This document shows, piece after piece, positions 20,466-54,817 of a stretch of DNA of 63,988 nt; position 1 is the stretch's first letter; each line of letters begins with the position of its first letter. Below the pieces are notes generated by a model. That model was not told where the DNA came from, searched no databases, and was given only the letters and a program-made list of their open reading frames with translations. Made by a program: the position numbers and the translations under genes. This stretch comes from Candidatus Atribacteria bacterium (GTDB taxonomy: Bacteria > Atribacterota > Phoenicimicrobiia > Phoenicimicrobiales > Stramentimicrobiaceae): positions 1 through 63,988 of the forward strand of contig JAKQEP010000029.1 of the NCBI GenBank assembly GCA_029556475.1, written 5' to 3'.

Positions 20466-20501
20466 AAAATTATAGAAATATTTTAGAACATTAAGATAAG
20501 A

Positions 20502-22510: not shown

Positions 22511-23741
22511 ATATATAATAATGCCTAAATTAAGCTTCAACATGAGAGAGGGAAAAATTATAAAATGGTTAAAACAAGAAGGAGAACAGGTTCAAGAGCA
22601 AGAGACCATTTTACAGATCGAAACTGATAAAAGTGTAATTGATTTTGAATCACAAATTTCAGGAATTTTAAGAAAAATATTTATAAAAGAAGGTGAAACT
22701 GTTCCTGTTACATTACCTATTGGCATTATTGCCAATAAAGAAGAAGACATAAGTATAATGATAAAAGAGGCATTGGAGATATTAGATGGTATTAGTAAGG
22801 GGGAGGAAATACAAGAAGAAATAGGGCAAGAAATAGAATTAAAAAGAGAGTTTCTTAAAAAAGAAGTCCAATCTTCCCCGGAAATATGTGAATCAGTTAA
22901 AATATCTCCTCGTGCCAGAAAAAAAGCAAAGGAACTTGGTATAGATATATCTTTAATTAAAAATAAATTCTCAAAAAAAATAATACAAGAAGAAGACATT
23001 ATTGAATTTTTCAATAAAGAAAAAAATGTTGTAATAGGTGGTATTCCCACAGTAAAAGTAATCGCTAAAGAAGTTCCTTATTCGGGAATGCGTCAAATCA
23101 TTGGTAACCGTTTATCTGAAAGTAAACTAACAGCACCACACATATATTTTTCTACTTCCGTAGATATGTCGAATGTTCTTGGAATAATAGAATCCTTAAA
23201 AAAAGAACAAGAAATAAATATCACAATTAATGATTTTTTGGTTTTCGTTCTGGCTAAAGTACTTACCGAGCAACCTAAAATGAACTCATCTTTAGTGGAC
23301 AATAAGATTGTCTACTATTCCAGTATTAATATTGGTATTGCTGTTGGACTGGAGGAGGGTTTGGTTGTTCCGGTAATAAAAGAAGCTGAAAAAAAGAATC
23401 TTAATGAAATTGCCAAAGAGAGCAAAAGATTGATCACATTGGCTCATGAGAAGAGATTAATGCCTGAAGATTATCAAAGTGGTACTTTTACTATATCAAA
23501 TTTAGGGATGTTTGGAATTGAAGAATTTACGGCAATTATTAATCCTCCTGAGTCGGGCATTTTAGCTATTGGTAGTATTCAAAGGAAACCAGTTGTAAAT
23601 AGCTATGACCAAATTGTGATAAGACCAATATTAAAAATGACTTTGTCCGTCGACCATAGAATTATTGATGGAATTGTCGCAACTCAATTTTTAAATTCAG
23701 TTAAAAAATATTTATTCAATCCTGGAATGCTGTTATTATAA
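22503..23741 (+). CDS. Dihydrolipoamide acyltransferase (E2)
   Basis: Single lipoyl domain (IETDKSV), a subunit-binding domain (SPRARKKAKELGIDIS) and a catalytic DHRIIDG motif. Confidence 0.9.
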   Translation: MAKYIIMPKLSFNMREGKIIKWLKQEGEQVQEQETILQIETDKSVIDFESQISGILRKIFIKEGETVPVTLPIGIIANKEEDISIMIKEALEILDGISKGEEIQEEIGQEIELKREFLKKEVQSSPEICESVKISPRARKKAKELGIDISLIKNKFSKKIIQEEDIIEFFNKEKNVVIGGIPTVKVIAKEVPYSGMRQIIGNRLSESKLTAPHIYFSTSVDMSNVLGIIESLKKEQEINITINDFLVFVLAKVLTEQPKMNSSLVDNKIVYYSSINIGIAVGLEEGLVVPVIKEAEKKNLNEIAKESKRLITLAHEKRLMPEDYQSGTFTISNLGMFGIEEFTAIINPPESGILAIGSIQRKPVVNSYDQIVIRPILKMTLSVDHRIIDGIVATQFLNSVKKYLFNPGMLLL

Positions 23742-24112: not shown

Positions 24113-25315
24113 ATGAAAAATAAATTATTATTTTTCTCGTTGACCCTTATAGCATTAGTGGTATTTTCCTTGGTTGTAACTGCTCAAGAGCCTGTAAAAA
24201 TAGGAATTGTTAGTCCGAAAAGTGGTAACTATGCTGATCATGGTGAAATGGAAAGAATAGGAATGTATTTAGCCGTAGAAGATTTTGGTGGTAAGGTATT
24301 AGGACGCCCCATTGAGTTAATTGAAGTTGATTCTGAAACGAATCCCGATATAGCTTCTAGAAGGACTAAGACGTTGATAGAAGCACAGGATGTAAAATTT
24401 TTCCTGGGTGCAGTAAGTAGTTCTGTAGGAATTGCTGTTGGTTCAGTTTGTCACGAACTAGGCTCCATATATATTTGTACAAATGCAAACTCAGATACCA
24501 TAACTGGAGTAGACGCCAATAAACATACCTTCAGGGTTCCACCTAATATGGCCATACTGGTTCGTGGTGCAGCTAAGTATGTCGCAGAGAATCTTGGTAA
24601 AAAATGGTATTTTGTTACCCATGATTATAGCTGGGGGTGGTCAGGAACTGAGTGGGGAAGAAAGATGTTAGATAAAGTAGGCGCTGTGGAAGTAGGAGAG
24701 GTAAAAATTCCTATGAATACCAGAGATATGAGTTCGTACCTGTTACAGTTGGTGAATTCTGGAGCTGATGTTGCTTGTGTAACAGTTGGCGGATTTGACG
24801 GAATTGCTTTGTATAATCAGATGGGAGAATTTGGTATTTTTGATAAGATGAAAGTATGGTGGACACTGGCTGATTATCCAGACAGTTATGCTATTCCGCC
24901 TGAGCAGCGTGGAAGATACGGTATGATGGAAATATATTGGAAAGCCACACCTGAGTTAATAGAGTTTAGTAAGAGAATTCATGATAAGTATCCTGGCGCC
25001 ATTGCGAATGTTACTGAAACAAACTCTTACCACGGGTGGCTGGGAATGAAAGCACTATTGACTGCTATTGAAAAAGCTGGCACAACTGACGTTGATAGTG
25101 TAATTAAATCTTTGGAAGGATTAATTATATGCGATAATAAGCAACCAGATCCCACCTATATCAGACCTTGGGACCATCAATTCATTGACACAATGTTTTT
25201 TGGTCACGATATTCCAGGGGCAGAGGGAGATGACATTACAGAAGTGTTATTTACAGCTCCATGTAAGGATTTTGCAAGAACAATGACTGAAAACCCCATT
25301 GATTTAACAAAATAG
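24113..25315 (+). CDS. ABC transporter substrate-binding protein, Liv/Peripla_BP_6 type
   Basis: Signal peptide ending VVTAQE with no lipobox Cys. The fold signature is LivJ-like (IGIVSPKSGNYA...). Confidence 0.85.
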   Translation: MKNKLLFFSLTLIALVVFSLVVTAQEPVKIGIVSPKSGNYADHGEMERIGMYLAVEDFGGKVLGRPIELIEVDSETNPDIASRRTKTLIEAQDVKFFLGAVSSSVGIAVGSVCHELGSIYICTNANSDTITGVDANKHTFRVPPNMAILVRGAAKYVAENLGKKWYFVTHDYSWGWSGTEWGRKMLDKVGAVEVGEVKIPMNTRDMSSYLLQLVNSGADVACVTVGGFDGIALYNQMGEFGIFDKMKVWWTLADYPDSYAIPPEQRGRYGMMEIYWKATPELIEFSKRIHDKYPGAIANVTETNSYHGWLGMKALLTAIEKAGTTDVDSVIKSLEGLIICDNKQPDPTYIRPWDHQFIDTMFFGHDIPGAEGDDITEVLFTAPCKDFARTMTENPIDLTK

Positions 25316-25328
25316 ATTTAAGATAAGA

Positions 25329-25364
25329 GAAGCCTGGTAGGGCTTGAAAGTCCTATCAGGCTTC
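25329..25364 (+). terminator. Intercistronic stem-loop after the SBP gene (partial terminator or mRNA stabiliser)
   Basis: GAAGCCTGGTAGG / CCTATCAGGCTTC forms a 13-bp stem with one G-U pair and a 10-nt loop. A T-rich tract follows. Confidence 0.5.
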
Positions 25365-25404
25365 TTACCATATTTTTGAAAATTTAAAAAGAGGAAATTA
25401 AAAC

Positions 25405-26289
25405 ATGAATACGACTTTATGTCTTGCACTTTTATTTAATGGAATTGTTTTAGGTTTAATATGGTCTGTCATTGCAATAGGGTTTAGTTTAGTATTGGGT
25501 GTTGGGCAAACCATAAATTTTGCCCATGGCTTGCTGTTTACTTTTGGAGCCTATTTCTTTTTTTCTATTTCTAGAAATACCTCGTTCTGGATAGCAGTAA
25601 TTGCAGCACCTATTTTAGTTGCCATAATGAGCTTGTTTTTGGAGGTAGTATTGGTTAGAAGGGTATATGGGCAGGACCCATTGTTTGGTTTACTAATTAC
25701 CTTTGGTTTTGCCATTGCAATGGAAGAAGTGATTAGAATGGTTTGGGGTAAAGCAGCCTACTCTGTGTCAACACCAATTTTTGCTCGTGGACAGCTTATA
25801 CTCGGGAATTTTGTTTATTCTAGATTCAGAATCTTACTTGCTCTATTTGCTTTAACTATTTTATTACTGGTGTTATGGTTTATGTCTAAAACAAGTTTCG
25901 GAGCTATAGTAAAAGCTGGAATGTTTAATAGCGAGATGATCTCAGCATTAGGTCACAATTTACCACTATTAAGAACATTAGTTTTTGTTATGGGTGGTTT
26001 ACTTGCTGGATTGGCTGGGGTTATTGGTGCTCCTTTATGGAGTATAAAATCAGGAATGGGTACAGATGTTTTAATGCCAGGATTTATTATAGCTTTAATT
26101 GGAGGTTTAGGAAGTATTAAAGGAACGATTATTGGGGGTTTATTAGTGGGTATAACTACATCCTTAGCCGTTTTAGTCATACCTAGGTTTACTGATATAA
26201 TTCCTTATGTAATGCTTATTGCAGTTTTATTCTATAAACCCAAAGGTTTATACGGTGAAGTGACGATTCTAGGAGAAGTGAGAGAATAG
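25405..26289 (+). CDS. ABC permease, LivH-like
   Basis: Polytopic membrane protein with a LivH-type N-terminus (NGIVLGLIWSVIAIGFSLV...INFAHG). Confidence 0.85.
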   Translation: MNTTLCLALLFNGIVLGLIWSVIAIGFSLVLGVGQTINFAHGLLFTFGAYFFFSISRNTSFWIAVIAAPILVAIMSLFLEVVLVRRVYGQDPLFGLLITFGFAIAMEEVIRMVWGKAAYSVSTPIFARGQLILGNFVYSRFRILLALFALTILLLVLWFMSKTSFGAIVKAGMFNSEMISALGHNLPLLRTLVFVMGGLLAGLAGVIGAPLWSIKSGMGTDVLMPGFIIALIGGLGSIKGTIIGGLLVGITTSLAVLVIPRFTDIIPYVMLIAVLFYKPKGLYGEVTILGEVRE

Positions 26290-26344
26290 GAAATAACATA
26301 TAGTGTTAGTAATAATGTTTTGAACAGAATAGGAGTATTCACTA

Positions 26345-27355
26345 ATGAAAACAAAAAATAATATACTACAAGACCCTTATTTATATATCTTTATTATTTT
26401 TTTGGTCTACCCATTTTTACCATACATAGGAAAATATAGGTCTGTAGGTACAGAATTATTGATTTGGTCAATATTTGCACTAAGTTTTAATCTCGTTTTA
26501 GGTTATTCAGGGCTTCCCTCTTTCGGGCATGGTGCATTTTTTGGTGTAGGAACATATGCTGTAGCTCTGACTCTACTCCACTTGACATCAAAAGATGTGA
26601 CTATTTCATTGATCTTGGCAGCATTTTTTGGTGGTTTGTTTACATTTTTTTATGGATTCATCATTAAAAAGAAAAGAGGAATATATTTTTCCTTACTGAC
26701 TGTAGCTTTTAGTCAAATTCTTTATGTAATTGGTTTTAGGTGGGATGAGGTAACTGGGGGTGAAACTGGAATTACAGGCTTACAAAGGGGCGGATTTTTA
26801 GGAATACAAATCAATAATCCTATAACATATTACTATTTTGTATTTGTTTTGTTTGTGATTACACTTTTGGTAATTAGAAAAATATCAAATTCGCCTGTAG
26901 GTAAGGTATTGTTAGCTTTAAAACAAGATGAAAAAAGAGCTCAATATTTAGGATTCAATACCGAAAGACAAGTGTGGTTTATTTTTACTATTTCAGGTAT
27001 TTTTGCGGGTCTGGCAGGAGGATTACATGGTTTATTACATTTGTCCGCATTTTCTGATACCTTGCATTGGACTAAATCTGGTGATGTTGTAATGGCAACA
27101 TTGTTAGGGGGAGGTTTAGCAAATTTTTATGGACCAATAGTGGGGGCAATTATTTTTATTTCAGCCAGAGAAATACTTAGTTCTTTTTGGGATAACTGGT
27201 TACTGTTATATGGGTTAGCCTTTGTTGTAATTATTTTATTTATACCTACTGGTTTATTGGGTATTGTTGAACGGATAAGGGAAAAGAAGCATTTTGAGCA
27301 ATTTAATAACAATAGAAATAATATTGGTAGCAAAAATACTCAAGAAATAACTTAG
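26345..27355 (+). CDS. ABC permease, LivM-like
   Basis: LivM-type block NLVLGYSGLPSFGHGAFFGVGTY. Confidence 0.85.
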   Translation: MKTKNNILQDPYLYIFIIFLVYPFLPYIGKYRSVGTELLIWSIFALSFNLVLGYSGLPSFGHGAFFGVGTYAVALTLLHLTSKDVTISLILAAFFGGLFTFFYGFIIKKKRGIYFSLLTVAFSQILYVIGFRWDEVTGGETGITGLQRGGFLGIQINNPITYYYFVFVLFVITLLVIRKISNSPVGKVLLALKQDEKRAQYLGFNTERQVWFIFTISGIFAGLAGGLHGLLHLSAFSDTLHWTKSGDVVMATLLGGGLANFYGPIVGAIIFISAREILSSFWDNWLLLYGLAFVVIILFIPTGLLGIVERIREKKHFEQFNNNRNNIGSKNTQEIT

Positions 27356-27373
27356 CTGGAGGATAGGAAAATA

Positions 27374-28156
27374 ATGGATTTATTAAGAACTGAAAATTTA
27401 ACCAAAAAATTTGGTGAATTAATTGCAGTAAATGATGTCAATATTTCAATACAAGAAGAAGGTATCTTATCAATTATTGGGCCAAATGGTGCGGGTAAAA
27501 CAACTTTTTTTAATCTCCTGACAGGATATTTAAAACCAACTAGTGGAAAAGTATTTTTGAAAGGTGAAGATATAACTAATTTGGCTCCATATGATATTGT
27601 TCACAAGAAATTATCAAGATCTTTTCAAATAGCCAGTTATTTCCCTGAGTTCACAATATTTGAAAATATTCAAATGGGTGTCTTTAATCGGCTTGGGTAC
27701 AGTTATAATTATTTTGCCAACATCAATAAGCTCAAAGATGTGCATAAAGAAACAGAAAAATACATGAAGATGTTAGATTTAACTGAACAGAAAGAAATGA
27801 AAGCCAAGTTTTTATCCCATGGTGACAAAAAAATACTTGACATTGCTATGTGTTTGACTGTGGAGCCGGAAATTTTACTATTAGACGAGCCTACTAGTGG
27901 TGTCTCAGGAACTGAAAGTACAAAAGTATTTAATTTTATTAAAAATTTATCAAAGAAAATGAAAATTGTCATTGTTGAACATGATATGGATATTGTTTTT
28001 TCAATATCTGATAGGGTTGTTGTTTTAGCCCAAGGCTCAATATTGGCTGATGGAACAGTTGAAGAAGTTAGAAAAAATGAAGACGTCCAGAAAGCTTATC
28101 TGGGAGGATTTACAGAAGGAGGGTACGAGGATGCTATCTCTGGAAAAAGTAAATAG
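27374..28156 (+). CDS. ABC ATPase, LivG-like
   Basis: Walker A GPNGAGKTT and an LLLDEP block. A short C-terminal tail follows AYLGG. Confidence 0.9.
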   Translation: MDLLRTENLTKKFGELIAVNDVNISIQEEGILSIIGPNGAGKTTFFNLLTGYLKPTSGKVFLKGEDITNLAPYDIVHKKLSRSFQIASYFPEFTIFENIQMGVFNRLGYSYNYFANINKLKDVHKETEKYMKMLDLTEQKEMKAKFLSHGDKKILDIAMCLTVEPEILLLDEPTSGVSGTESTKVFNFIKNLSKKMKIVIVEHDMDIVFSISDRVVVLAQGSILADGTVEEVRKNEDVQKAYLGGFTEGGYEDAISGKSK

Positions 28157-28844
28157 TTGGTATGGAGAAGCACAAGTATTGAGAAATGTTGATTTAAATG
28201 TCAAAGAAGGAGAAATTGTAGCACTGTTTGGTCGTAATGGTGTTGGGAAAACAACTACATTAAGAAGTATAATGGGACTCACTCCTCCTCTTGGTAAGGG
28301 TAAAATTGTTTTTAAGGATGAAAACATTTTAGGGTTGCCTCCTTATAAAATTGCTAACAAAGGTATTGGTTTTGTGCCTGAAGACCGTAGGATTTTCCCG
28401 TATTTAACAGTAAAAAGAAATTTAGATACTGGTAAGAAAAGCACTCATAAGAGTAACTCAAAGACGAAATGGGATTATCAAAAGGTTTTTCAATTATTTC
28501 CTAAATTGGAAATATTACAGGATTCTTTGGGTAAGAATTTAAGCGGTGGAGAGCAACAAATGTTAACAATAGCGCGTACATTGATGGGTAATCCTGAATT
28601 GCTTTTATTAGACGAACCCTCTGAGGGATTAGCCCCTTTGATTGCAAGAGATGTAATTAATTTAGTTCTAGAATTGAAAAAAGAATATGGATTAAGTATT
28701 TTAATCATTGAACAATTTTCTCCAAGGGTATTAGAATATGCAGACCGTTGTTATGTTATGGATATGGGAAAGATTGTTTTTTGTGGATGTTCCGAAGATT
28801 TAAGGAAAGATGTAAAATTACAAAAAGAGTTGTTAGGGGTGTAG
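28131..28844 (+). CDS. ABC ATPase, LivF-like
   Basis: Walker A GRNGVGKTT and signature LSGGEQQML. The start is set at ATG 28131 (MLSLEKV), behind GGAGGG, and overlaps livG by 26 nt. The ORF-track start 28050 would run inside livG. Confidence 0.85.
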   Translation: MLSLEKVNSWYGEAQVLRNVDLNVKEGEIVALFGRNGVGKTTTLRSIMGLTPPLGKGKIVFKDENILGLPPYKIANKGIGFVPEDRRIFPYLTVKRNLDTGKKSTHKSNSKTKWDYQKVFQLFPKLEILQDSLGKNLSGGEQQMLTIARTLMGNPELLLLDEPSEGLAPLIARDVINLVLELKKEYGLSILIIEQFSPRVLEYADRCYVMDMGKIVFCGCSEDLRKDVKLQKELLGV

Positions 28845-28866: not shown

Positions 28867-30120
28867 ATGAAAGGAAATTTTAAAAATATGTTTAAATCTG
28901 ATTCTGTTTGGGAGTTTAAAATTGCCGGTAGAATTAAGTTTGGTTTAGGTGCAGTTGAAGAGCTTAAAAGTGATTTAAAAGGATTTCCAGGAAATAAAGT
29001 AATACTAATAACAGATGAAGGAATTAAAAAAGCAGGTATCTTGGACTACATAACAGATATTATAAAGGATTTTGACATCTCAATTTTTGACCAAGTATCT
29101 TCTGACCCTGAAATAAAAAATGTTGAAGATGCACTAGCATATACAAAAAAAAATAATGGTAATATAATTATAGGTTTAGGTGGGGGAAGTCCAATTGATG
29201 TGGCAAAAGTAGTTTCCATTGTAGCAAAATATGGTGGTGATATTAAGGACTATATAGCTCCACCTAATGGCAAAGGTAAGCCTATAGAAGGACCTGGTTT
29301 ACCAATGATTGCTATTCCCACAACCTCAGGGACTGGTGCAGAAGTATCACCTGCAGCAGTGTTAACTCTTACTGAAAAGGAATTAAAAGTTGGTATTTCA
29401 AGCCAAATGCAAAGACCAGCCTTAGCAATTGTTGACCCACTTTTAACCATTTCAGTTCCACCACATATTACAGCTTCGACGGGAATCGATGCTCTATGTC
29501 ACGCTATTGAAGCTTATGCTACTAAGAGATTTGATCAGAAAGAAAAACCAAAAACTCCTGAAACTCGCCCTATTTATGGAGGTACTACTATCTTTACAGA
29601 CCTCTTTGCTGAAAAAGCGATAGAACTAGTTGCAGGAAATTTAAGGAAAGCATTTAATAACGGACAAAATGTAGAGGCTAGGACAAACCTTTCTCTTGCC
29701 AGTCTTATGGCTGGTATAAGCTTTACCAATGCTGGTTTGGGTGTAGTGCATGCCATGTCATTCCCTTTGGGTGGTAAATTCCATATTCCTCATGGCATAG
29801 CCATTGCAGCAACGTTGCCTGCAGTGATGGAATTCAATGCTGCTAGTAATTTTGAGATATTTAGCAATATTGCTATTCTAATGGGTGAAAATATCGATGG
29901 ATTATCTGATAGGGAAGCAGCATTAAGATCTGCTAAAGCAGTTAAGGAACTATGTAGAGATGTTGGTATACCTAATATTTCATCGTTTGGAATTAAAAGG
30001 GAGGATCTACCCTTAATGGCATCGGAAACAATGAAAATCCAAAGATTGTTAGCTGGTAATCCTCGTATAGTATCTGTGGAAGATGCTTTAAAAATATTTC
30101 AGAATGCTTTAGAAGGATAA
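28867..30120 (+). CDS. Iron-containing (group III) alcohol dehydrogenase
   Basis: Motifs GGGSPIDVAK and metal-binding His motifs HAIEAY and HAMSFPLGGKFHIPHG. An alternative start is ATG 28888. Confidence 0.9.
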   Translation: MKGNFKNMFKSDSVWEFKIAGRIKFGLGAVEELKSDLKGFPGNKVILITDEGIKKAGILDYITDIIKDFDISIFDQVSSDPEIKNVEDALAYTKKNNGNIIIGLGGGSPIDVAKVVSIVAKYGGDIKDYIAPPNGKGKPIEGPGLPMIAIPTTSGTGAEVSPAAVLTLTEKELKVGISSQMQRPALAIVDPLLTISVPPHITASTGIDALCHAIEAYATKRFDQKEKPKTPETRPIYGGTTIFTDLFAEKAIELVAGNLRKAFNNGQNVEARTNLSLASLMAGISFTNAGLGVVHAMSFPLGGKFHIPHGIAIAATLPAVMEFNAASNFEIFSNIAILMGENIDGLSDREAALRSAKAVKELCRDVGIPNISSFGIKREDLPLMASETMKIQRLLAGNPRIVSVEDALKIFQNALEG

Positions 30121-30213: not shown

Positions 30214-30876
30214 ATGAATAAGAAAAAAATTGCTATTATTGAAACTACTTTGGTTCCATTGCAAGATTTAAGGGAATTATTTTTTGAAATAATTCCTGAA
30301 GCAGAAATTATTAGTTTTGTTGATGACAGCATGTTAAAAGAGGTAATTTCTGCTGGCAAACCAACTCCGAACGTAATTAGGCGCTATTGCTCATACGCGG
30401 TAAATGCTGAAAGTATTGGTAGTAACTTAATATTTAATCAATGCTCATCTGTTGGAGAGGTGGCAGATATAGCTCAACAAATGGTTAATATACCAATTTT
30501 TAAAACTGATTTACCAATGGCTCAAGAAGCAGTTGAAAAAGGTACAAAGATTGGAGTAGTAGCTACACTAAACACCACACTAAATCCTACCAGTAGATTA
30601 ATTCAAAAAGTTGCCGATGAAAAGGGTAAAAAAATTACTATAATACCAAAATTAGCTGAAGGAGCGTTTGAATTGGTCAGCAGGGGTGACAAAGAAGGGC
30701 ATAACAAACTTGTCATTAAAACGATTCAAGAATTAGCTAGCTCTGTAGACATAATAGCTTTAGCCCAGGGAAGTATGGCTGTGCTAATTCCAGACCTAAA
30801 GGGTGTTGATATTCCTGTATTGTCTAGTCCACGATCAGGTGTATTAGGTGCAAAAGCACTCTTAGAAACATTATAA
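30214..30876 (+). CDS. Asp/Glu/hydantoin-racemase-fold protein (function unknown)
   Basis: 220 aa. The blocks IAIIETT..., NQCSSVGE, IGVVATLNTTLNPT, LAQGSMA and VLSSP match the short Asp/Glu racemase family proteins as I recall them. Confidence 0.6.
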   Translation: MNKKKIAIIETTLVPLQDLRELFFEIIPEAEIISFVDDSMLKEVISAGKPTPNVIRRYCSYAVNAESIGSNLIFNQCSSVGEVADIAQQMVNIPIFKTDLPMAQEAVEKGTKIGVVATLNTTLNPTSRLIQKVADEKGKKITIIPKLAEGAFELVSRGDKEGHNKLVIKTIQELASSVDIIALAQGSMAVLIPDLKGVDIPVLSSPRSGVLGAKALLETL

Positions 30877-30899
30877 AATAAAAAGGAGGATCAAAGATT

Positions 30900-31916
30900 A
30901 TGAGTATTAAAGTGGCAGTTGTAGGATATGGAACAATAGGGCAACGTTTAGCTGATGGTGTTGCCTTACAAAAAGATATGGAATTAGTGGGAGTTGTTGA
31001 TGTTGCTCCTACACTAGCTGTAAGAGCTTTGGTAGAAAAGGGAATGCCTTATAACTTCTACTGCGCAGTGCCTGAAAATATTCCTCAATTGGAAGAAATC
31101 GGAGTACCTGTATCAGGCACAATGGATGACATTTTAAAAAAAGTAGATATCGTTTTGGATGCGACTAGTGCTGGGGTTGGTAAAAAGAATAAAGAAATTT
31201 ACCAAAAGTACAATTTACCTGCTGTTTTCCAGGGAGGAGAAAAAAATGAAATTGCTGATGTGTTCTTCCATGGATATGCAAATTACGAAAAAGGATTAGG
31301 GCAGAAATATTTAAAATTAACATCCTGTAATACTACTGGATTAATAAGAGCGGTTGATTGTTTAGATAGAGAAGTAGGTGTAGAAAAAGTGGCCATTACC
31401 ATAATTAGACGAGTTGCTGATCCTGGTGATTACTTTAGAGGATTGACAAATGCCTTGCAGGTAGATAAGGCACCTAGTCATCAAGCAGTTGATTTGATGA
31501 CCATTATGCCTCATATTGATGCTACTGGTATTCTGGTTCATACCCCTGTTACTCATGGCCATATTATTACCATAGTTGCTACTCCTAAGAAAAAAATAAC
31601 CCCTGAAAAAACAATAAATCTTTTTTCTGAACATCCTAGAATTAGAGTTGTTAGTATAGATGAAGGTTTTTTAGGAAATGCTTCATTATTTAAATATGCA
31701 CGTGATTTAGGTAACCCACGTGGTGATATGTACGAAATTGCAGTCTGGAAAGATACAATGGTCACTTCAGGAGATGATATTATGTTTGCAATTAATATAC
31801 CACAAGAAGCGGTTGTTATACCTGAAACCATTGATGCAATTAGAGCTAGCTTAAAAATGCAAATAGATAGGTTAGAGGCAGTTGGTGTTACCAATAAATA
31901 TTTAAATATGAAATAA
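30900..31916 (+). CDS. gap: Glyceraldehyde-3-phosphate dehydrogenase, type II (archaeal type)
   Basis: It aligns along its full length, by eye, with archaeal GAPDH as remembered. Shared blocks are VGYGTIGQR, FQGGEK, catalytic SCNTTGL, RRVADP, PSH, EIAVW and QEAVVIPETIDAIRA. Confidence 0.85.
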   Translation: MSIKVAVVGYGTIGQRLADGVALQKDMELVGVVDVAPTLAVRALVEKGMPYNFYCAVPENIPQLEEIGVPVSGTMDDILKKVDIVLDATSAGVGKKNKEIYQKYNLPAVFQGGEKNEIADVFFHGYANYEKGLGQKYLKLTSCNTTGLIRAVDCLDREVGVEKVAITIIRRVADPGDYFRGLTNALQVDKAPSHQAVDLMTIMPHIDATGILVHTPVTHGHIITIVATPKKKITPEKTINLFSEHPRIRVVSIDEGFLGNASLFKYARDLGNPRGDMYEIAVWKDTMVTSGDDIMFAINIPQEAVVIPETIDAIRASLKMQIDRLEAVGVTNKYLNMK

Positions 31917-31931
31917 AAGAGGTGCATTTAA

Positions 31932-33191
31932 ATGATTGATGGAATATATACTCTTGATGATATCGATGTCGCGGGCAAGACTATCCTTGCCCGCTTTGAT
32001 ATGAACTCCCCCTTGGACTCAAAAACAAAAGAACCAGTAGATATTACTAGAATCGAAGAAAGCATACCCACTATAAAAGAGTTAATAGAAAAAGGAGCAA
32101 AAACAATTGTTTTAATTCATCAGGGAAGTGATATAGAGTATCAAAACTTTGCATCTGTGAGACCTCATTCAAAAATTTTATCAAAATTGTTGAATAAAAC
32201 AGTTGATTATATTGATGATATATGCGGACCAGCTGCCAGAGAAAAAATATGCAATATGAGAAATGGGGAAATTCTGATACTGGAGAATGTAAGATTTATG
32301 GCAGAAGAAATGACTCTATTTGAAACTAAGTTAAATCTTACTCCTGAGGAACAGTCTAAGACTATAGTTGTACAAAAATTATCTCCTTTAGCTCATTTCT
32401 ATTTAAATGACGCATTTTCTGCTGCTCATCGTTCCCAGCCAACCCTCGTTGGCATGGAAGAATTATTACCATCAATAATGGGTAGATTAATGGAAAAAGA
32501 AATTTCTTCATTAGATAGATTGTTAAGAAATCCTGAAAAACCATGCATTTTCATTTTAGGTGGGGCAAAAATACAAGATGCCTTTTTAATGCTTAATACT
32601 ATTTTAGATAATAATGTTGCTGATTTCGTACTCGCAGCAGGGCTCTTTTCTCATGTCATTTTATTAGCCAAGGGTATTCGGTTAGGGAAACCCTCAGAAG
32701 ATTTAATTAAGAAGAAAAATTTAGAAGAATTTATTGAAAAGTCAAAAAGTGTAATAAATAAGTACAGTGATAAGATTAAATTGCCTGTAGATTTTGGTTA
32801 CATTGATTCGGGTAATAGAAAAGAATTGATTATTGAAGAATTACCTTTAAGTAATAATACTTTGATGGACATAGGGAATAAAACTATAAATGAATACGAG
32901 AAAATAATAAGTAAGGCAAAAACCATATTTTTCAACGGTCCTGCTGGAGTCTTTGAAGAAGAAGCGAGTGAATTAGGTACAAAATCTTTGCTAACTGCAA
33001 TTGCCAGTAGTAATGCTTTTTCAGCGGTAGGGGGTGGTGACACCATCACAGCTTTAAATAAATATAGATTATTAAATCGAATGTCTTATGTCAGTACTGG
33101 TGGTGGTGCTTTGATTAGATTTTTAAGTGGAGAAGAATTACCGGTAATTAAAGCTTTGAAAAAGTCTGCAAAAAAGTTTCCTTTGTTATAA
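31932..33191 (+). CDS. pgk: Phosphoglycerate kinase, archaeal-type
   Basis: Blocks RFDMNSPLD, ILENVRF, NDAFSAAHRSQPTLVG, MEKEI, LGGAK, GGGD, STGGGA and GEELPVIKAL resemble archaeal PGKs rather than the bacterial RVDFNVP type. Confidence 0.85.
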   Translation: MIDGIYTLDDIDVAGKTILARFDMNSPLDSKTKEPVDITRIEESIPTIKELIEKGAKTIVLIHQGSDIEYQNFASVRPHSKILSKLLNKTVDYIDDICGPAAREKICNMRNGEILILENVRFMAEEMTLFETKLNLTPEEQSKTIVVQKLSPLAHFYLNDAFSAAHRSQPTLVGMEELLPSIMGRLMEKEISSLDRLLRNPEKPCIFILGGAKIQDAFLMLNTILDNNVADFVLAAGLFSHVILLAKGIRLGKPSEDLIKKKNLEEFIEKSKSVINKYSDKIKLPVDFGYIDSGNRKELIIEELPLSNNTLMDIGNKTINEYEKIISKAKTIFFNGPAGVFEEEASELGTKSLLTAIASSNAFSAVGGGDTITALNKYRLLNRMSYVSTGGGALIRFLSGEELPVIKALKKSAKKFPLL

Positions 33192-33347: not shown

Positions 33348-34625
33348 TTGAAAACTATTAATATTGAACTAAAATACGGTGATACAAGAATCAATTTTTA
33401 TTTGGAAAATAAGAATATTATAAACATATTGACTGCTAACCAGGAAATACCCTTAAAAGAACCTTCAATTAAGCTAGAGAATTTGTTGGAAAACCCAATC
33501 AATAGCCCTTCTCTTACACAATTGATAAAAGATAAAAAAGCCAAAAAGATTCTAATTATAGTTAATGATATTACCAGGCCCACACCATATAACATCCTTC
33601 TGCCCCCACTACTGAAGAAGCTAGAGGAGATTGGCATCAAAAGAGACAATATTACTTTTCTTATTGCCACAGGAGCGCATCGGGGAAATACAGAAGAGGA
33701 AGATATTAAGACATTTGGCAAAGAGCTGGTATCTTCCTACCAATTTGTCAATCATAGCTGTGATGATGACAGATTGATAGACTTAGGCCAATTAAAAAGT
33801 GGTAATCATCTTTTTGTAAACCCCCTGATAGAGGAGGCAGATTTTCTCATTACCACTGGCGTCATTGTCCCTCATTACATAGCAGGTTTCTCAGGTGGCA
33901 GAAAATCAATCCATCCTGGAATCTGTGGGAGAGAGACCATAGAGAAAAATCATTCCCAGATGGTTCACCCCAAAGCTACTACCGGTAATCTTATAGGTAA
34001 TCCGGTGCATGAGGAGATGCTGGAGGCAGCCCAAAGGGTCCATGTCGATTTTAATATCAATACCATTACCGATGAGGATGGTAATATCATAGATATTGTG
34101 GCAGGTGAATTGACAGAATCCTGGCAAAAAGGAGTAGAGATCTCTAAGAATACCTATATCACCCCCATCAAGGAGCAAGCCGATGTAGTCTTTACCAGCG
34201 CAGGAGGATATCCCAAAGATATCAATATCTATCAAGCTCAAAAGGCATTGGATAATGCCTTCCATGCCGTTAAACCTAGTGGTACCATTGTCTTGGTGGC
34301 AGAATGTAAAGAAGGTATCGGTAACACCATCTGCGAACAGTGGATAGAGGAGGCTCATTCCATACGGGATATAGAAGAACGGCTCAAGAGATGTTTTATC
34401 CTAGGAGGTCACAAGGCCTATGCTATTGCCAAGGTAGCCAAAGAAGTAGATATTATTCTCTTATCCTCCCTCAGTAAATATCTGACTAAAAAACTATTCA
34501 TGAAGCCAGCAGAAAATATAAAGCAGGCTGTTAAACTGGTTCATGAAAAACACGGTAAAGATTTTAGAAGCTATATCATACCATCTGGGAATAATGTGCT
34601 TCCCCAAATCCAAAATATAATATAA
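33348..34625 (+). CDS. LarA-family nickel-pincer (NPN)-dependent 2-hydroxyacid racemase/epimerase homolog
   Basis: TTG start. Motifs NDITRPTP, ATGAHRG, PHYIAGFSGGRKS (the NPN-tethering Lys context) and downstream His residues are present. Confidence 0.85.
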   Translation: MKTINIELKYGDTRINFYLENKNIINILTANQEIPLKEPSIKLENLLENPINSPSLTQLIKDKKAKKILIIVNDITRPTPYNILLPPLLKKLEEIGIKRDNITFLIATGAHRGNTEEEDIKTFGKELVSSYQFVNHSCDDDRLIDLGQLKSGNHLFVNPLIEEADFLITTGVIVPHYIAGFSGGRKSIHPGICGRETIEKNHSQMVHPKATTGNLIGNPVHEEMLEAAQRVHVDFNINTITDEDGNIIDIVAGELTESWQKGVEISKNTYITPIKEQADVVFTSAGGYPKDINIYQAQKALDNAFHAVKPSGTIVLVAECKEGIGNTICEQWIEEAHSIRDIEERLKRCFILGGHKAYAIAKVAKEVDIILLSSLSKYLTKKLFMKPAENIKQAVKLVHEKHGKDFRSYIIPSGNNVLPQIQNII

Positions 34626-34976: not shown

Positions 34977-35651
34977 ATGGCAAGATTCCCCATGATTAAA
35001 AACCATGAATTATTGAGCCAGAAAGTTTATCGTATTATTAAACGAGATATCATTCAAGGAAAATTATCCTCTGATACCCGATTATATGAAGAGAAGATTG
35101 CAGAACAAATGAACATTAGTCGAACACCTGTTAGAGAAGCACTTAGATCATTATCTGCTGAGGGATTTGTCAAACTTATTCCAAATATTGGCATTGTTGT
35201 AAACCATATTTCCCCTAAAGACTTACTAGATATTCTAAATATTAGACAAGAATTAGAAACTTATGCCATTTGCCTTGCTGCTCAAAAAATTAATGAGAAA
35301 GATATTGATAATTTGAATGTGATTATTCAGCAAATGGAAAGGGCGGTATTTACCAATAATACATTGCTTTTTAATAATCTAAATTTAGAATACCACAGAA
35401 ATATTATCTTCATTTCTAACAATAATAAATTAATAGAAATATGTGATAATTTACATCAACAATCTGAACGCTGGATTAAATCTATAGTAGTTAAAGAACG
35501 TTTAATGCATAGCCTTCAAGAACATGTAGAAATATATAATAGTCTTAAGAAAAAAGATGTTGATGGAGCAAAAAAAGCAATGAGTATACATATAAGCAAT
35601 ATTATTAAAAATATCTTTAAAACGGATTTAAAGGAGAGAACAGAACAATGA
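34977..35651 (+). CDS. GntR-family (FadR/FCD subfamily) transcriptional regulator
   Basis: HTH ISRTPVREALRSLSAEGFV followed by an all-helical FCD-like C-terminal domain. Confidence 0.85.
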   Translation: MARFPMIKNHELLSQKVYRIIKRDIIQGKLSSDTRLYEEKIAEQMNISRTPVREALRSLSAEGFVKLIPNIGIVVNHISPKDLLDILNIRQELETYAICLAAQKINEKDIDNLNVIIQQMERAVFTNNTLLFNNLNLEYHRNIIFISNNNKLIEICDNLHQQSERWIKSIVVKERLMHSLQEHVEIYNSLKKKDVDGAKKAMSIHISNIIKNIFKTDLKERTEQ

Positions 35652-36493
35652 GAAAAATTGAAGCTAGAGAGATTTCTGAAAAAGTAAAGAACCTGTTCCT
35701 GGAAGCCAATTTCAATATAGGCAAAGACGTTTTAGAAGCATTGGAAAAAGCTCTTGAGAAAGAAGAGTCAAAAGTTGGGAAAGATGCTTTGAAAATGATT
35801 ATTGATAATAACCGTTTAGCATCAACAGAAAAACTTGCCATCTGTCAGGATACCGGTCTGGCAGTATTATTCATAGAAGTGGGTCAGGAAGCATGTATTA
35901 TTAACGGAAACTATGTAGAGGCAATAAATAAAGGAGTAGAGGCAGCATACCAAGAAGGATATCTAAGAAAATCAGTAGTTGATGACCCCGTTTTTGATCG
36001 GAAAAATACTAAAACCAATACCCCGGCTTTTATCTATACTGATATTATCCCTGGAGATAGAATTAAAATAACAGTTCTACCCAAGGGTTTTGGAAGCGAG
36101 AATATGAGTGGACTGGCTATGCTGACCGCTGCGCATGGTGCTAAGGGTATAATGGATTTTATTGTGGATACTGTAAGAAAAGCAGGGCCAAACCCCTGTC
36201 CGCCAACTATTGTTGGAGTAGGTATCGGTGGAACTGCGGACAAAGCAATGGTAATAGCCAAAAAAGCTACTGCCCGCCCTATTGGAGAGTATAATGCTAA
36301 TCCTAAATATGCTCAGATGGAAAAGGAGACCCTTGAGAGAATAAATAAATTGGGGATAGGACCAGCCGGCTTGGGGGGTAATACCACATCCCTGGCAGTA
36401 CATATTGATTATCTACCAACACATATTGCAGGTATGCCAGTGGCAGTAAATATATGCTGTCATGCTGCACGTCATGCTTCAGGAGAAATATAA
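35648..36493 (+). CDS. Class I Fe-S hydro-lyase alpha subunit (fumarate hydratase / L(+)-tartrate dehydratase type)
   Basis: CQDTG motif, other conserved Cys residues and a GGTADK block. It overlaps the GntR gene by 4 nt. Confidence 0.85.
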   Translation: MRKIEAREISEKVKNLFLEANFNIGKDVLEALEKALEKEESKVGKDALKMIIDNNRLASTEKLAICQDTGLAVLFIEVGQEACIINGNYVEAINKGVEAAYQEGYLRKSVVDDPVFDRKNTKTNTPAFIYTDIIPGDRIKITVLPKGFGSENMSGLAMLTAAHGAKGIMDFIVDTVRKAGPNPCPPTIVGVGIGGTADKAMVIAKKATARPIGEYNANPKYAQMEKETLERINKLGIGPAGLGGNTTSLAVHIDYLPTHIAGMPVAVNICCHAARHASGEI

Positions 36494-36526: not shown

Positions 36527-37087
36527 ATGAGTGAAGAAATTAAGATTACTACCCCTCTGGATGAATCTATTGTATTAAAATTAAAAGCAGGTGATTCAGT
36601 TAAAATAACGGGAAATATCTATACCGGTAGGGATGCTGCCCACAAGAGATTATATGAGTTGATTGAGGAAGGGAAAGACCTGCCTTTTTCACTGGAAGGT
36701 CAAATAATTTATTATGTAGGACCTGCGCCCGCCAAACCGGGATATGCCTGTGGTCCTGCAGGTCCTACTACCAGTTACCGTATGGACCCTTATACTACAG
36801 CTTTATTGGAAAAAGGGCTTAAAGGGATGATTGGTAAAGGATTGCGTTCTAAAGAAGTAATTGAAAGTATGAAGAAGAATAAGGCTGTATATTTTGCAGC
36901 CGTAGGCGGAGCTGCAGCTTTAATTGCTAAAACTATTAAAAAATCAGAGGTGATTGCTTATTCTGACCTGGGAGCAGAAGCCATACACCGCTATTATGTG
37001 GAGGATTTCCCGGCTATTGTTTGTATCGATGCTTATGGGAACAATTTATATAAAAGTGAACCGCCTAAATATAGAAAAGAATTATAA
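36527..37087 (+). CDS. Class I Fe-S hydro-lyase beta subunit
   Basis: Blocks GNIYTGRDAAHKRL and GPTTSYRMD are typical of FumB/TtdB. Confidence 0.85.
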   Translation: MSEEIKITTPLDESIVLKLKAGDSVKITGNIYTGRDAAHKRLYELIEEGKDLPFSLEGQIIYYVGPAPAKPGYACGPAGPTTSYRMDPYTTALLEKGLKGMIGKGLRSKEVIESMKKNKAVYFAAVGGAAALIAKTIKKSEVIAYSDLGAEAIHRYYVEDFPAIVCIDAYGNNLYKSEPPKYRKEL

Positions 37088-37123: not shown

Positions 37124-38299
37124 ATGGACATAAACCAAGAAGCTTTAAAACTGCACAGCGAAAATAGAGGAAAGATTGAGGTAGTTAGCAAGACCAAAAT
37201 TAAAGATATGCATGATCTTGCTGTAGTCTATACCCCCGGAGTAGCTGAACCTTGCCGCAAAATCCATCAGAATGTTTCAGATGTCTATACCTACACTGTC
37301 AAGGGTAATATGGTAGCAGTAATATCAGATGGAACAGCAGTGCTGGGACTGGGAGATATTGGTCCTGAGGCTGCCATTCCGGTTATGGAAGGAAAGGCAG
37401 TGCTCTTTAAATATTTTGGTGGTGTCGATGCCTTCCCAATATGCCTGGCTACTAAAGATACGGATGAGATCGTAGAGACGGTGACCCGGATTGCTCCGGT
37501 ATTTGGAGGAATTAACTTGGAGGATATTAGTGCTCCCCGTTGTTTTGAAATAGAGAAGAGATTAAAAGAAACGCTCGACATCCCGGTCTTCCATGATGAT
37601 CAGCATGGAACTGCTGTAGTAGTCCTCTCCGGAGTTATTAATGCTTTAAAATTGGCCAACAAGAAGATGGAAGAGGTTAAAATGGTGGTTAACGGTGCCG
37701 GAGCTGCTTCCATTGCAGTAGCTAAATTCTTACTATCTGCCGGTGCTCAAAATATCATCCTCTGTGATTCAAGGGGTATAGTATATGAGGGACGTACTGA
37801 AAATATGAATTCAGCCAAAGAAGAAATGGCAAAGCTAACCAATAAAGATAAGGTAAAGGGCAACCTTGCCGATGCCCTGGTAGGTGCTGATCTATTTTTG
37901 GGATTGTCCGGTCCCAATCTGGTTACCTCAGAGATGGTCAAAAGAATGGCTCATGATCCCATTGTAATTGCCATGGCTAATCCCATACCTGAGATTTACC
38001 CTGATGAAGCCAGAGCCGGTGGTGCCCGTATCATCGCTACTGGCCGTTCCGACTTCCCCAACCAGGTCAACAATTGTTTGGGATTCCCTGCTATCTTCAA
38101 AGGTGCCTTAAAAGTGAGAGCGAGTGAAATTAACGAAGAGATGAAGCTGGCAGCAGCCCATGCCATTGCTTCGGTAATTCCGGATAATGAACTCAGTGAG
38201 ACTAACTTCATTCCCAATGTTTTCCATCCGGAGGTAATGGAGAAAGAAGCTGAAGCAGTGGCTCAAGCAGCAAGGGATACCGGGGTAGCAAGGATATAG
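37124..38299 (+). CDS. NAD(P)-dependent malic enzyme (short form)
   Basis: Motifs VYTPGVA, GLGDIGP, FHDDQHGTA, NGAGAA and ANPIPE. Confidence 0.9.
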   Translation: MDINQEALKLHSENRGKIEVVSKTKIKDMHDLAVVYTPGVAEPCRKIHQNVSDVYTYTVKGNMVAVISDGTAVLGLGDIGPEAAIPVMEGKAVLFKYFGGVDAFPICLATKDTDEIVETVTRIAPVFGGINLEDISAPRCFEIEKRLKETLDIPVFHDDQHGTAVVVLSGVINALKLANKKMEEVKMVVNGAGAASIAVAKFLLSAGAQNIILCDSRGIVYEGRTENMNSAKEEMAKLTNKDKVKGNLADALVGADLFLGLSGPNLVTSEMVKRMAHDPIVIAMANPIPEIYPDEARAGGARIIATGRSDFPNQVNNCLGFPAIFKGALKVRASEINEEMKLAAAHAIASVIPDNELSETNFIPNVFHPEVMEKEAEAVAQAARDTGVARI

Positions 38300-38311: not shown

Positions 38312-38340
38312 TTGACAAGATAATAAATAGAATTTATAAT
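38312..38340 (+). promoter_or_regulatory. Consensus sigma-70-type promoter for the T-box leader
   Basis: TTGACA (38312-38317), a 17-nt spacer, then TATAAT (38335-38340). Confidence 0.6.
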
Positions 38341-38650: not shown

Positions 38651-39094
38651 ATGAAGAACAAATTTAAAGATTTTGAATTAGTGGAACATACGGCAGATAT
38701 AGGTTTGAAAATATATGGGAAGGACGAAAAAGATTTATTTATCAATGCAGCTCGAGGAATGTTTTTTTTGATTACTGGTTCTCGTATTTCTCTAGCTCCG
38801 GAAAGTATACGAAAATACTATGCATTAGAAAGTGAAGCTCCTGGCAGAGAAGATTTATTGGTTACCTGGTTAAATGATTTATTATATATTCATTTTACTG
38901 ATTTAGTAATCTTTGATGATTACATTATTGATTATATTTCAGAAGAAGTGATTAAATCTAAAGTCAGAGCTGTAGAGATTAAAGATTCCCCCTATCAGAT
39001 AGTTAAAGAGATAAAAGCAGTTACTTACCATAATTTGCAAGTTTGCCAGAATAAAAACGGAATATGGGAGGCAAACATAGTATTTGATATTTAA
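38651..39094 (+). CDS. Archease (RtcB activator)
   Basis: 147 aa, with EHTADIG near the N-terminus and KAVTYHNL near the C-terminus. It lies immediately upstream of rtcB. Confidence 0.8.
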   Translation: MKNKFKDFELVEHTADIGLKIYGKDEKDLFINAARGMFFLITGSRISLAPESIRKYYALESEAPGREDLLVTWLNDLLYIHFTDLVIFDDYIIDYISEEVIKSKVRAVEIKDSPYQIVKEIKAVTYHNLQVCQNKNGIWEANIVFDI

Positions 39095-39179
39095 TGTTAA
39101 ATCTTTTAATATTCTTATAGAGGAACGATACTGATTGAGAAGATTCTCATCATCTTTACTGTAAAGGAGGGATGATACT

Positions 39180-40643: not shown

Positions 40644-40671
40644 TAAAAAATTGTTTAAGAAATAGCAATAA

Positions 40672-41973
<1,302 letters not shown>

Positions 41974-42013
41974 GGTAAAATTTTAATGCTGTCTATTTCT
42001 TGAGGTCATTTGC

Positions 42014-54801: not shown

Positions 54802-54817
54802 TTAGAAAGGTAAGATA

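Follow-up and report, generated by a model that had tools for sequence, protein, structure and literature searches.

Why should a bacterium of the Atribacterota keep a glyceraldehyde-3-phosphate dehydrogenase (GAPDH) and a phosphoglycerate kinase (PGK) of the archaeal type, side by side and amidst genes of catabolism? The question is raised by contig JAKQEP010000029.1 of Candidatus Atribacteria bacterium (GenBank assembly GCA_029556475.1), of which positions 1 to 63,988 were analysed; this whole stretch is called the window below. Three of its genes are at issue: one for a protein with the fold of Asp/Glu racemases, one for a type II GAPDH, here named GAPII, and one for the PGK. The original prediction had offered two explanations, a horizontal acquisition of archaeal lower glycolysis or the recruitment of dehydrogenase and kinase as an acyl-phosphate-forming module for an analogue of 3-phosphoglycerate (3-PG), be it in carboxylate reduction or in aldehyde oxidation. 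We here favour recruitment, in the direction of aldehyde oxidation with gain of ATP and not in that of carboxylate reduction. The pair is probably an ATP-yielding module that oxidizes a carboxylate analogue of glyceraldehyde 3-phosphate (GAP) to the corresponding analogue of 3-PG; its substrate would be (R)-3-hydroxy-4-oxobutanoate, i.e., D-malate semialdehyde.

(R)-3-Hydroxy-4-oxobutanoate is D-GAP with –COO− replacing –OPO3. GAPII would convert it, together with NAD+ and phosphate, to D-malyl 1-phosphate, an analogue of 1,3-bisphosphoglycerate (1,3-BPG) that has its acyl phosphate on the carboxyl group adjoining the hydroxyl. The PGK homologue, as a D-malyl-phosphate:ADP phosphotransferase, would then yield D-malate and ATP. 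The product of the adjacent larA gene would racemize D-malate to L-malate, and malic enzyme would turn the latter into pyruvate. A malate racemase would accompany the pair because the pathway yields D-malate, which malic enzyme cannot use before racemization.

Both proteins are archaeal-type, as had been predicted. The three open reading frames (ORFs) and every quoted motif were recovered in the translations: FQGGEK, SCNTTGL, RRVADP and PQEAVVIPETIDAIRA in GAPII, RFDMNSP, NDAFSAAHRSQPTLVG and GEELPVIKAL in the PGK. GAPII passes the curated cutoffs of NF003251 (403 bits versus 185) and TIGR01546 (313 versus 233). A sequence search of the PDB returned four archaeal GAPDHs as its only significant matches (E 3e-77 to 5e-65), type I GAPDHs having E values above 0.2; the identity to the archaeal GAPDHs is 36–41%. 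The PGK matches PF00162 over its full length (364 bits, residues 8–401), has the archaeal-type ‘HQG’ motif and is 42% identical to archaeal PGK. Its best PDB match is the enzyme of Pyrococcus horikoshii with 328 bits, as compared with 222 bits for the best bacterial one, from Thermotoga.

To what extent do the active sites agree with this kinship? For GAPII, 84 members of the clade were compared with four archaeal structures, in the numbering of the Methanothermus fervidus enzyme. The catalytic Cys140 and His219 and the flanking Ser139, Asn141 and Thr142 are kept in the window's protein and in all 84. HMMER aligns the two His of ‘THGH’ with ‘MHQH’ of GAPII; near His219, MAFFT deviates from this alignment by a shift of two residues, and apparent differences at positions 217–221 were therefore discarded. 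Arg167 and Arg168, which make up the substrate-phosphate (Ps) site, are likewise kept in 84 of 84. The site for inorganic phosphate (Pi) comprises Ser139, Asn141, Arg167, His193 and His194. Four of the five are kept; His194, found in all four archaeal structures, is Gln throughout the clade. A second clade-wide change affects the cofactor site, where Lys33 of the four archaeal structures is replaced by Asp (Asp34) in 84 of 84. In the archaeal enzymes Lys33 contacts the 2'-phosphate of NADP+, and the roles of the Ps and Pi residues have been assigned in the same work (PMC12041015). To judge from the residues, Lys33→Asp and His194→Gln are the signature of an NAD+-dependent, catabolic GAPII. The invariance of Cys140, His219, S139, N141, R167/R168 and H193 leads one to expect phosphorolysis and a substrate site that binds an anion. 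Whether the anion is a phosphate or a carboxylate is not discriminated by the Arg167/Arg168 site.

In structures of PGK, Arg65 is a ligand of the phosphate of 3-PG, and the equivalents of Asp23, Asn25 and Arg38 are the ligands of its carboxylate and 2-hydroxyl groups. We compared 77 GAPII-linked PGKs with 110 archaeal-type representatives (50%-identity clusters). At position 66, the equivalent of Arg65, R or K is present in 110 of the 110 representatives; the GAPII-linked kinases have D (66), S (9) or G (2), that of the window S. The other strongly discriminating positions are 68 (G → L/I), 72 (D → N) and 388 (S → C), besides an insertion of one residue where Tyr70 is invariant. All of them, except 388, belong to the Arg65-equivalent loop. 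The carboxylate and hydroxyl ligands (D23, N25, R40) are kept in 77 of 77, and the residues of the catalytic and nucleotide sites (K213, G367–369, G391–392, E342) are invariant. From the basic patch around the 3-phosphate, which consists of the equivalents of His62, Arg65, Arg122 and Arg170, H63, R121 and R167 are kept and the Arg65 equivalent is lost. There are two lineages of such kinases, about 44% identical to each other, that have the change of the Arg65 loop and the gene contexts in common; the window's PGK is of the minority lineage. Long PGK-containing representatives were inspected as possible GAPII-PGK fusions and turned out to be tandem PGKs or unrelated fusions.

Might the two enzymes nevertheless be what their annotation says, a genuine GAPDH and PGK that work on GAP, 1,3-BPG and 3-PG? 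They would then be horizontally acquired isoenzymes of the archaeal type, used for gluconeogenesis from C4 acids or for triose phosphates that arise in neighbouring pathways. We consider this unlikely. Both proteins do score above the curated cutoffs of their families, the catalytic residues and the Arg167/Arg168 site of GAPII are intact, and the kinase retains H63, R121 and R167. However, not a single one of the 77 kinases has preserved the Arg65 equivalent, with Asp in its place in 66, and Lys33→Asp speaks for NAD+ and a catabolic function, contrary to the gluconeogenic use of NADPH in archaea. The only pertinent assay known to us concerned Pseudoclostridium thermosuccinogenes. Its type II GAPDH, produced in E. 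coli, had no detectable activity on GAP with NAD+ or NADP+, whereas the same study found activity for two of its type I GAPDHs; according to the authors, functional evidence for the type II class in bacteria does not exist (PMC6543838). The result fits an accessory enzyme with another substrate, though it is weak when taken alone, and the tested enzyme may lie outside the present clade.

The distribution of the pair speaks against an isolated acquisition. Relatives of GAPII occur in the databases by the thousands, at 76–94% identity. When one genome was scanned for each species, GAPII was found encoded in at least 544 bacterial genomes from six or more phyla. The 80 best ones span Bacillota, Spirochaetota, Chloroflexota (Anaerolineae, Dehalococcoidales), Atribacterota, Planctomycetota and Thermotogota. 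Within the window, the operon has a G+C content of 0.33–0.34, and because this equals that of its surroundings there is no sign of recent acquisition. Judged by these comparisons, GAPII is an old, strongly constrained and widely exchanged bacterial clade, not a recent import of archaeal glycolysis.

What the pair does may be read from the company it keeps. The neighbourhoods of the 80 best GAPII loci (71–83% identity; locus numbers beginning with L are ours) were examined with ORFs labelled by BLASTP against a reference set; 45 loci had enough flank for counting neighbours within 10 kb. A PGK gene adjoins GAPII in 44 of these 45. A LarA homologue is found in 36, a set of at least three of iolG/B/D/E in 27, a split transketolase in 21, malic enzyme in 20 and the racemase-fold gene in 4 (8 of 80 overall). 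The iron-containing alcohol dehydrogenase (Fe-ADH) of the window, which had been proposed as a partner of the pair, stands beside it only in the window and in contigs that are nearly identical; none of the 80 genome loci has it next to the pair. The consistent partners are malate racemase and malic enzyme. Three feeder modules recur along with them: iolG/E/D/B with a split transketolase, a class-III aminotransferase, and the racemase-fold gene.

In the inositol module, IolG, IolE, IolD and IolB convert myo-inositol to 5-dehydro-2-deoxy-D-gluconate. Seen from C6, this compound is a ketose with the D-threo configuration at C3/C4 that transketolase needs. By established chemistry, removal of the C6-C5 ketol unit would leave OHC-CH(OH)-CH2-COO− in the configuration of D-GAP, and its oxidation would give D-malate, the counterpart of 3-phospho-D-glycerate. 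Most relatives would obtain the aldehyde this way, i.e., from myo-inositol via IolG/E/D/B and transketolase cleavage. In the four genomes with Pfam annotation (Thermoanaerobacterium thermosaccharolyticum, Caloramator sp. E03, Carboxydocella thermautotrophica and Fonticella tunisiensis) the common order is sugar ABC transporter, (malic enzyme), GAPII, PGK, TktN, TktC, IolB, IolD, IolE, IolG, LarA. A PfkB kinase, a class II aldolase and an aldehyde dehydrogenase (ALDH), the families of IolC, IolJ and IolA, are absent from all four operons; in a Pfam census of 76 further same-strand neighbours from the 27 iol-type loci, these families were not among the recurrent ones either. Compared with the classical route of Bacillus subtilis, most related loci have the same upper genes iolG, iolE, iolD and iolB, but IolC, IolJ and IolA are replaced by split transketolase, GAPII, PGK, LarA and malic enzyme. 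One ATP is spent at IolC in the classical branch; in the proposed one, an ATP would be gained by substrate-level phosphorylation. A full-text search found no literature that joins myo-inositol, D-malate and transketolase; a paper on inositol use by Dysosmobacter describes a phosphorylated aldolase route.

These clusters bear again on a pair that serves triose phosphates. The iol clusters lack a kinase able to make a phosphorylated triose. Clostridium magnum DSM 2767 has two GAPII-PGK pairs in different catabolic clusters, one in a full iol/transketolase cluster and the other with only malic enzyme, LarA and a GntR regulator (L025, L030), which likewise counts against a genuine glycolytic pair. 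In favour of triose phosphates, the adjoining enzymes that lead from malate to pyruvate could feed gluconeogenesis, and locus L026 has genes of a tetronate pathway ending in dihydroxyacetone phosphate. These genes lie immediately upstream of GAPII-PGK-malic enzyme-LarA (L026:4856-9918) and encode a DUF1537 kinase, a class II aldolase-type decarboxylase and an OtnI-like TIM-barrel protein; the locus also has a LUD-domain protein and two paralogues of the racemase-fold protein.

The aminotransferase module would lead to the proposed aldehyde from another side. A class-III (omega-) aminotransferase gene lies immediately upstream of GAPII in L046, L059 and L060. In the Atribacterota locus L009 it also belongs to the cluster, with an M20 peptidase and two aldehyde:ferredoxin oxidoreductases between it and GAPII. 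L060 has an M20 peptidase and a TRAP transporter as well, and L059 has a sigma-54 activator ahead of its aminotransferase. None of these four clusters contains a kinase. Here the aldehyde would probably stem from an omega-amine, e.g., by transamination of 4-amino-3-hydroxybutanoate.

That the product is malate is suggested, first of all, by LarA. The window's LarA scores 531 bits with NF052593, the model for LarAH6 malate racemases (cutoff 500), and has the malate racemase Mar2 as its best PDB match (6d6z, 297 bits). In Bacillota and Planctomycetota, the LarAs that accompany the pair score 520–601 bits, all above the cutoff. Mar2 recognizes its substrate with Tyr172-Lys173 and Gln293 (Desguin 2020; PMC7583248). 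By pairwise alignment, its ‘HYK’ is ‘HYI’ in the window's LarA, i.e., Lys is replaced by Ile, and ‘YQAQK’ is identical. This member of LarAH6 is an efficient malate racemase by assay; its physiological role was left open (PMC7583248). A second pointer comes from Clostridium ganghwense. In the 21 kb retrieved around its iol-Tkt-GAPII-PGK cluster there is neither LarA nor malic enzyme; between iolD and iolE it has a decarboxylating dehydrogenase of the tartrate/D-malate type (L019:16942-18021; TIGR02089, 521 bits versus 470). This enzyme appears to be an independent replacement of LarA plus malic enzyme, again pointing to malate. An Iso_dh gene next to PGK in L082 was also considered as a D-malate enzyme; it is an ordinary LeuB.

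Could the module oxidize some other aldehyde, such as 5-deoxy-D-glucuronate, tartronate semialdehyde or glycolaldehyde, with LarA epimerizing the resulting 2-hydroxy acid? The spirochaete loci L014 and L015 invite the idea: they have IolG/D/E, GAPII, PGK and a divergent LarA that stays below the malate-racemase cutoff, with neither IolB nor transketolase in the stretch retrieved. An HpcH/HpaI-type aldolase in L013, L035 and L040, along with an aldehyde:ferredoxin oxidoreductase in L013 and L040, suggests still further aldehydes. Against this stands the identity of 71–83% between GAPIIs over all contexts, which makes a single substrate probable. Malic enzyme in 20 of 45 loci, LarAH6 scores above cutoff and the D-malate-type dehydrogenase of C. 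ganghwense all point to malate, and a C6 substrate would be a poor fit for a scaffold made for C3 phosphates. Another aldehyde is, in our judgement, improbable. The three loci with the aldolase (from Acidaminobacter, Alkalibacter and Tindallia) share a larger cluster. In it, genes for a creatininase-family protein, for the HpcH/HpaI aldolase, for a D-2-hydroxyacid dehydrogenase and for an isomerase resembling KduI/IolB come before GAPII-PGK-racemase-fold-malic enzyme-LarA. A TRAP transporter was confirmed in L013.

How, then, does D-malate semialdehyde arise in the organism we started from? The window itself lacks iol genes, unlike its iol-type relatives and the classical route. Its genes from a Liv-type ABC importer through malic enzyme are all co-directional (Table 1). 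The gene calls of the importer were taken from an essentially identical contig, JGI Ga0116237_10001152. The Fe-ADH gene starts 22 nt after the importer, the racemase-fold gene 93 nt after Fe-ADH; the spacers between racemase-fold gene and GAPII and between GAPII and PGK, all on the same strand, measure 23 and 15 nt. The Liv-type importer probably brings in the operon's substrate. The Fe-ADH would oxidize an imported primary alcohol-acid to the aldehyde, 3,4-dihydroxybutanoate being the simplest candidate. This is a tentative proposal, made because of the tight arrangement of ABC importer, Fe-ADH, racemase-fold protein, GAPII and PGK. The best NCBIfam likenesses of Fe-ADH, all below cutoff, are choline dehydrogenase, lactaldehyde reductase and 4-hydroxybutyrate dehydrogenase. 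Homoserine/aspartate-semialdehyde chemistry, with a Liv-type binding protein for uptake and the racemase-fold protein as an Asp racemase, was also considered for the window and rejected because GAPII is about 80% identical to those of iol clusters and a malate racemase follows PGK.

A scan for promoters and terminators gave hits at chance level, and no terminator was evident inside the stretch from ABC importer to PGK. A GC-rich hairpin of 18 bp lies between the genes for the binding protein and the permeases (25327-25366), the usual layout for differential expression in operons of this kind.

The same genes could also be read backwards, with malate being phosphorylated to malyl phosphate, reduced to malate semialdehyde and further, by Fe-ADH, to dihydroxybutanoate as an electron sink. 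GAPDH and PGK catalyse reversible reactions, the Fe-ADH gene directly precedes the three genes at issue in their operon, malate might come from the neighbouring fumarase, malic enzyme and malate racemase, and a synthetic malyl-phosphate route to dihydroxybutyrate has been reported. Yet the operon starts with a binding-protein-dependent importer, which suggests catabolism; the reverse flow would cost a fermenter ATP plus two NADH; in the iol and aminotransferase contexts the flow is clearly towards the acid; and the NAD-type site with Asp34 suits oxidation. The reversed module is, accordingly, very hard to believe in.

For the racemase-fold protein, the assignment to the two-domain racemase fold held: the AlphaFold (AF2) model has a pLDDT of 95, and Foldseek aligned it with Glu/Asp racemases at a TM of 0.75–0.80 and 13–21% identity. 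PF01177 is matched with 44.7 bits (cutoff 31), NCBIfam gave no match, and a sequence search of the PDB gave no significant one. The fold search retrieved generic Glu/Asp/hydantoin racemases, with arylmalonate decarboxylase lower, at a TM of about 0.6. The catalytic Cys pair that had been expected, which in two-base racemization occupies the N-termini of pseudo-symmetric helices, is not there. Among the invariant residues (D37, Y61, C77, S78, E82, D99, H163, Q185, S187, M188, S205) is a single catalytic Cys, Cys77, after the strand 72–75; the second site, after strand 180–183, is occupied by invariant Ser187 in the motif ‘AQGSM’. Nor does any of the present results show that the gene stands in for tpi. 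It is an optional accessory: in the eight loci mentioned, orthologues of about 46% identity lie inside clusters of GAPII, PGK, malic enzyme and LarA that have no iol and no transketolase genes. The subfamily has 233 database matches. Its other contexts are an ApnO-like DRL_cat gene with split transketolase or aldehyde:ferredoxin oxidoreductase, TAL/FSA, and pairs of short-chain dehydrogenases/reductases (SDRs); a Pasteurella context is uninformative. These settings suggest that the protein acts beside the carbonyl of a sugar-derived acid; they do not fix the reaction. It may epimerize the carbon next to the carbonyl, e.g., convert (S)- to (R)-malate semialdehyde, and in the window it may adjust that stereocentre. 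Alternatively, it may be a decarboxylase of 3-oxo acids that resembles arylmalonate decarboxylase.

In L091/L092 (7547-11533) and L093 (7637-11968), homologues 59–64% identical to the racemase-fold protein follow an ApnO-like PF21135 DRL_cat gene; behind them come a split transketolase or an aldehyde:ferredoxin oxidoreductase, and genes for apiosidase and fucosidase are close by. The arrangement may represent an unphosphorylated route of the apionate type.

Several points weigh against D-malate semialdehyde as the substrate. With Arg167/Arg168 fully conserved, the dehydrogenase alone leaves GAP possible, and the kinase retains three of the four basic residues of its phosphate patch. The inactivity of the P. 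thermosuccinogenes enzyme on GAP was seen in cell extracts, where poor expression is possible (PMC6543838). LarA and malic enzyme are both missing within 10 kb in 9 of 45 loci, and the LarA partners of the spirochaetes reach 382–384 bits, which is below the malate-racemase cutoff. Mar2 was also tried as the LarA of the T. thermosaccharolyticum iol cluster and had to be dismissed; the N-termini differ, so that the LarA of the cluster is a paralogue or the difference is one between strains. In the window itself, the aldehyde source is a guess, since there are no iol genes and the two split transketolases upstream, 11–16 kb from the operon (13427-20465), are only 39–49% identical to iol-linked ones. 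Finally, substrate, product, direction and feeder steps are assigned entirely from gene identities, neighbourhoods and clade-wide residue changes, evidence that is comparative rather than biochemical.

How does the proposed module compare with established biochemistry? The GAPDHs and PGKs of archaea, as exemplified by M. fervidus 1CF2 and P. horikoshii 2CZC/2CUN, have the same folds and belong to the same sequence families. Catalytic Cys and His, Arg167/Arg168, most of the Pi site, the ‘HQG’ motif and the catalytic and nucleotide-binding residues of the kinase are retained, and the genes are adjacent. The bacterial clade differs by Lys33→Asp, by His194→Gln and by the loss of the Arg65 equivalent with its remodelled loop. 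It also differs in setting: the operons of the bacterial pair are catabolic and include malate racemase and malic enzyme, while the archaeal enzymes serve gluconeogenesis.

The closest precedent in terms of intermediates is the carnitine pathway of Acinetobacter baumannii, in which the sequence malic semialdehyde to D-malate to pyruvate is proven; the first step is catalysed by a non-phosphorylating enzyme of the ALDH superfamily (PMC11353897). The intermediates proposed here, 3-hydroxy-4-oxobutanoate, D-malate and pyruvate, are the same. The decarboxylating D-malate dehydrogenase there is of the type found in the C. ganghwense cluster; in the bacterial clade, D-malate would usually be handled by nickel-pincer racemase and malic enzyme. 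The Acinetobacter ALDH conserves no ATP, whereas GAPII plus PGK would conserve one.

A common logic, the interconversion of carboxylate, acyl phosphate and aldehyde on a C4 dicarboxylate, links the module to aspartate kinase and aspartate-semialdehyde dehydrogenase. From such aspartate-pathway enzymes a synthetic malyl-phosphate pathway has reportedly been built. Their target is the C4 carboxyl, the one remote from the amino or hydroxyl group, and their biosynthetic direction leads to the aldehyde. In the present module it would be C1, beside the hydroxyl, that carries the acyl phosphate, and the flow would lead to the acid. Aspartate-semialdehyde dehydrogenase is itself a member of the GAPDH superfamily (PMC12041015).

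On balance, we lean towards the view that in more than 500 species the pair consists of a phosphorylating D-malate-semialdehyde dehydrogenase and a D-malyl-phosphate kinase. This would comprise an undescribed substrate-level phosphorylation, a kinase-free, transketolase-dependent lower branch of inositol degradation, feeders for amino- and hydroxybutanoates, and a role for LarAH6. No description of such a pathway was found in the searchable full-text literature, which leaves out papers in subscription journals, or in curated family libraries; the latter name the proteins of the clade GAPDH and PGK.

Table 1. Genes of the operon and of the malate-converting genes behind it; the gene calls and Pfam families of the importer are those of the identical JGI contig.
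Feature	Position	Strand	Characteristics
Liv-type ABC importer	24113..28844	+	PF13458 219 bits
Importer, Peripla_BP_6 binding protein	24113-25315	+	
Importer, permease	25405-26289	+	
Importer, permease	26345-27355	+	
Importer, ATPase	27374-28156	+	
Importer, ATPase	about 28131-28844	+	
Iron-containing alcohol dehydrogenase (Fe-ADH)	28867..30120	+	PF00465, PF25137
Racemase-fold gene	30214-30876	+	220 aa; PF01177 44.7 bits
Type II GAPDH gene (GAPII)	30900-31916	+	338 aa; NF003251 403 bits
Archaeal-type PGK gene	31932-33191	+	419 aa; PF00162 364 bits
LarA-family nickel-pincer malate racemase, LarAH6 group	33348..34625	+	NF052593 531 bits; 156 nt after PGK
GntR/FCD-family regulator	34977..35651	+	PF00392, PF07729; stands at the head of the genes for fumarase and malic enzyme
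Class I (Fe-S) fumarate hydratase, alpha	35648-36493	+	NF004885 395 bits (cutoff 276)
Class I (Fe-S) fumarate hydratase, beta	36527-37087	+	NF005310 289 bits (cutoff 238)
Malic enzyme (L-malate → pyruvate + CO2)	37124..38299	+	PF00390, PF03949

The pair lies in an accessory catabolic island and not in a gap-pgk-tpi setting, as had been supposed. No canonical gap, pgk or tpi was found within the 64 kb. The gene of the GntR regulator and the start of that for the fumarase alpha subunit overlap by 4 nt. The host is bacterial: Rfam recognizes lysine and FMN riboswitches, a murI-like gene is present (42148-42972), and RtcB and UPF0182 fall into clusters of ≥90% identity together with proteins that carry the name Atribacterota. 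The T-box that had been listed among the bacterial traits was not found at the Rfam gathering score. The FMN riboswitch lies immediately upstream of an ECF riboflavin S-component gene (4961-5824), the lysine riboswitch at the extreme end of the window (63781-63972).

Upstream of the operon and on its strand, the region 13427-23741 contains split transketolase pairs (14194-16024 and 17857-19628) with flanking SDRs (13427-14176 and 19683-20465), followed by E1alpha, E1beta and E2 of a dehydrogenase complex of the 2-oxoacid or acetoin type (20502-23741), with no E3 nearby. The transketolase/SDR part may be another ketose-cleaving feeder. The segments 16024-17857 and about 10500-13400 are very AT-rich (G+C 0.26–0.28); the former, between the transketolase units, has no ORF of ≥120 aa. 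Downstream, an archease and RtcB RNA-ligase pair, seryl-tRNA synthetase and tRNA-Ser(TGA) occupy 38651-42099, and a perfect sigma-70 consensus, TTGACA-17-TATAAT, precedes archease at 38312-38340. A butyrate-kinase-like gene, a phosphotransacylase and a 2-oxoacid:ferredoxin oxidoreductase (alpha/beta 55754-57708) form a cluster at 53710-58307, and a second Liv-type ABC system comes after it (58664-63408).

If the proposal is correct, hundreds of annotations as “type II GAPDH” or “phosphoglycerate kinase” in anaerobic Bacillota, Spirochaetota, Chloroflexota, Atribacterota and others would be functionally wrong, and metabolic models built on them would mis-assign glycolytic capacity. The pathway would also contribute an acyl phosphate that is new as a natural intermediate, and a step of ATP conservation that is likewise new. 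Fermenters would possess a new way of degrading inositol, with a lower branch that gains ATP where the classical one spends it at IolC. The nickel-pincer malate racemases would gain a role in vivo. Two central enzymes of glycolysis would have been co-recruited to a new substrate by very local changes, in a loop of PGK and in the cofactor and Pi sites of GAPDH. They would also be natural enzymes for the engineering of malate and dihydroxybutyrate pathways, which so far relies on engineered enzymes of the aspartate pathway.

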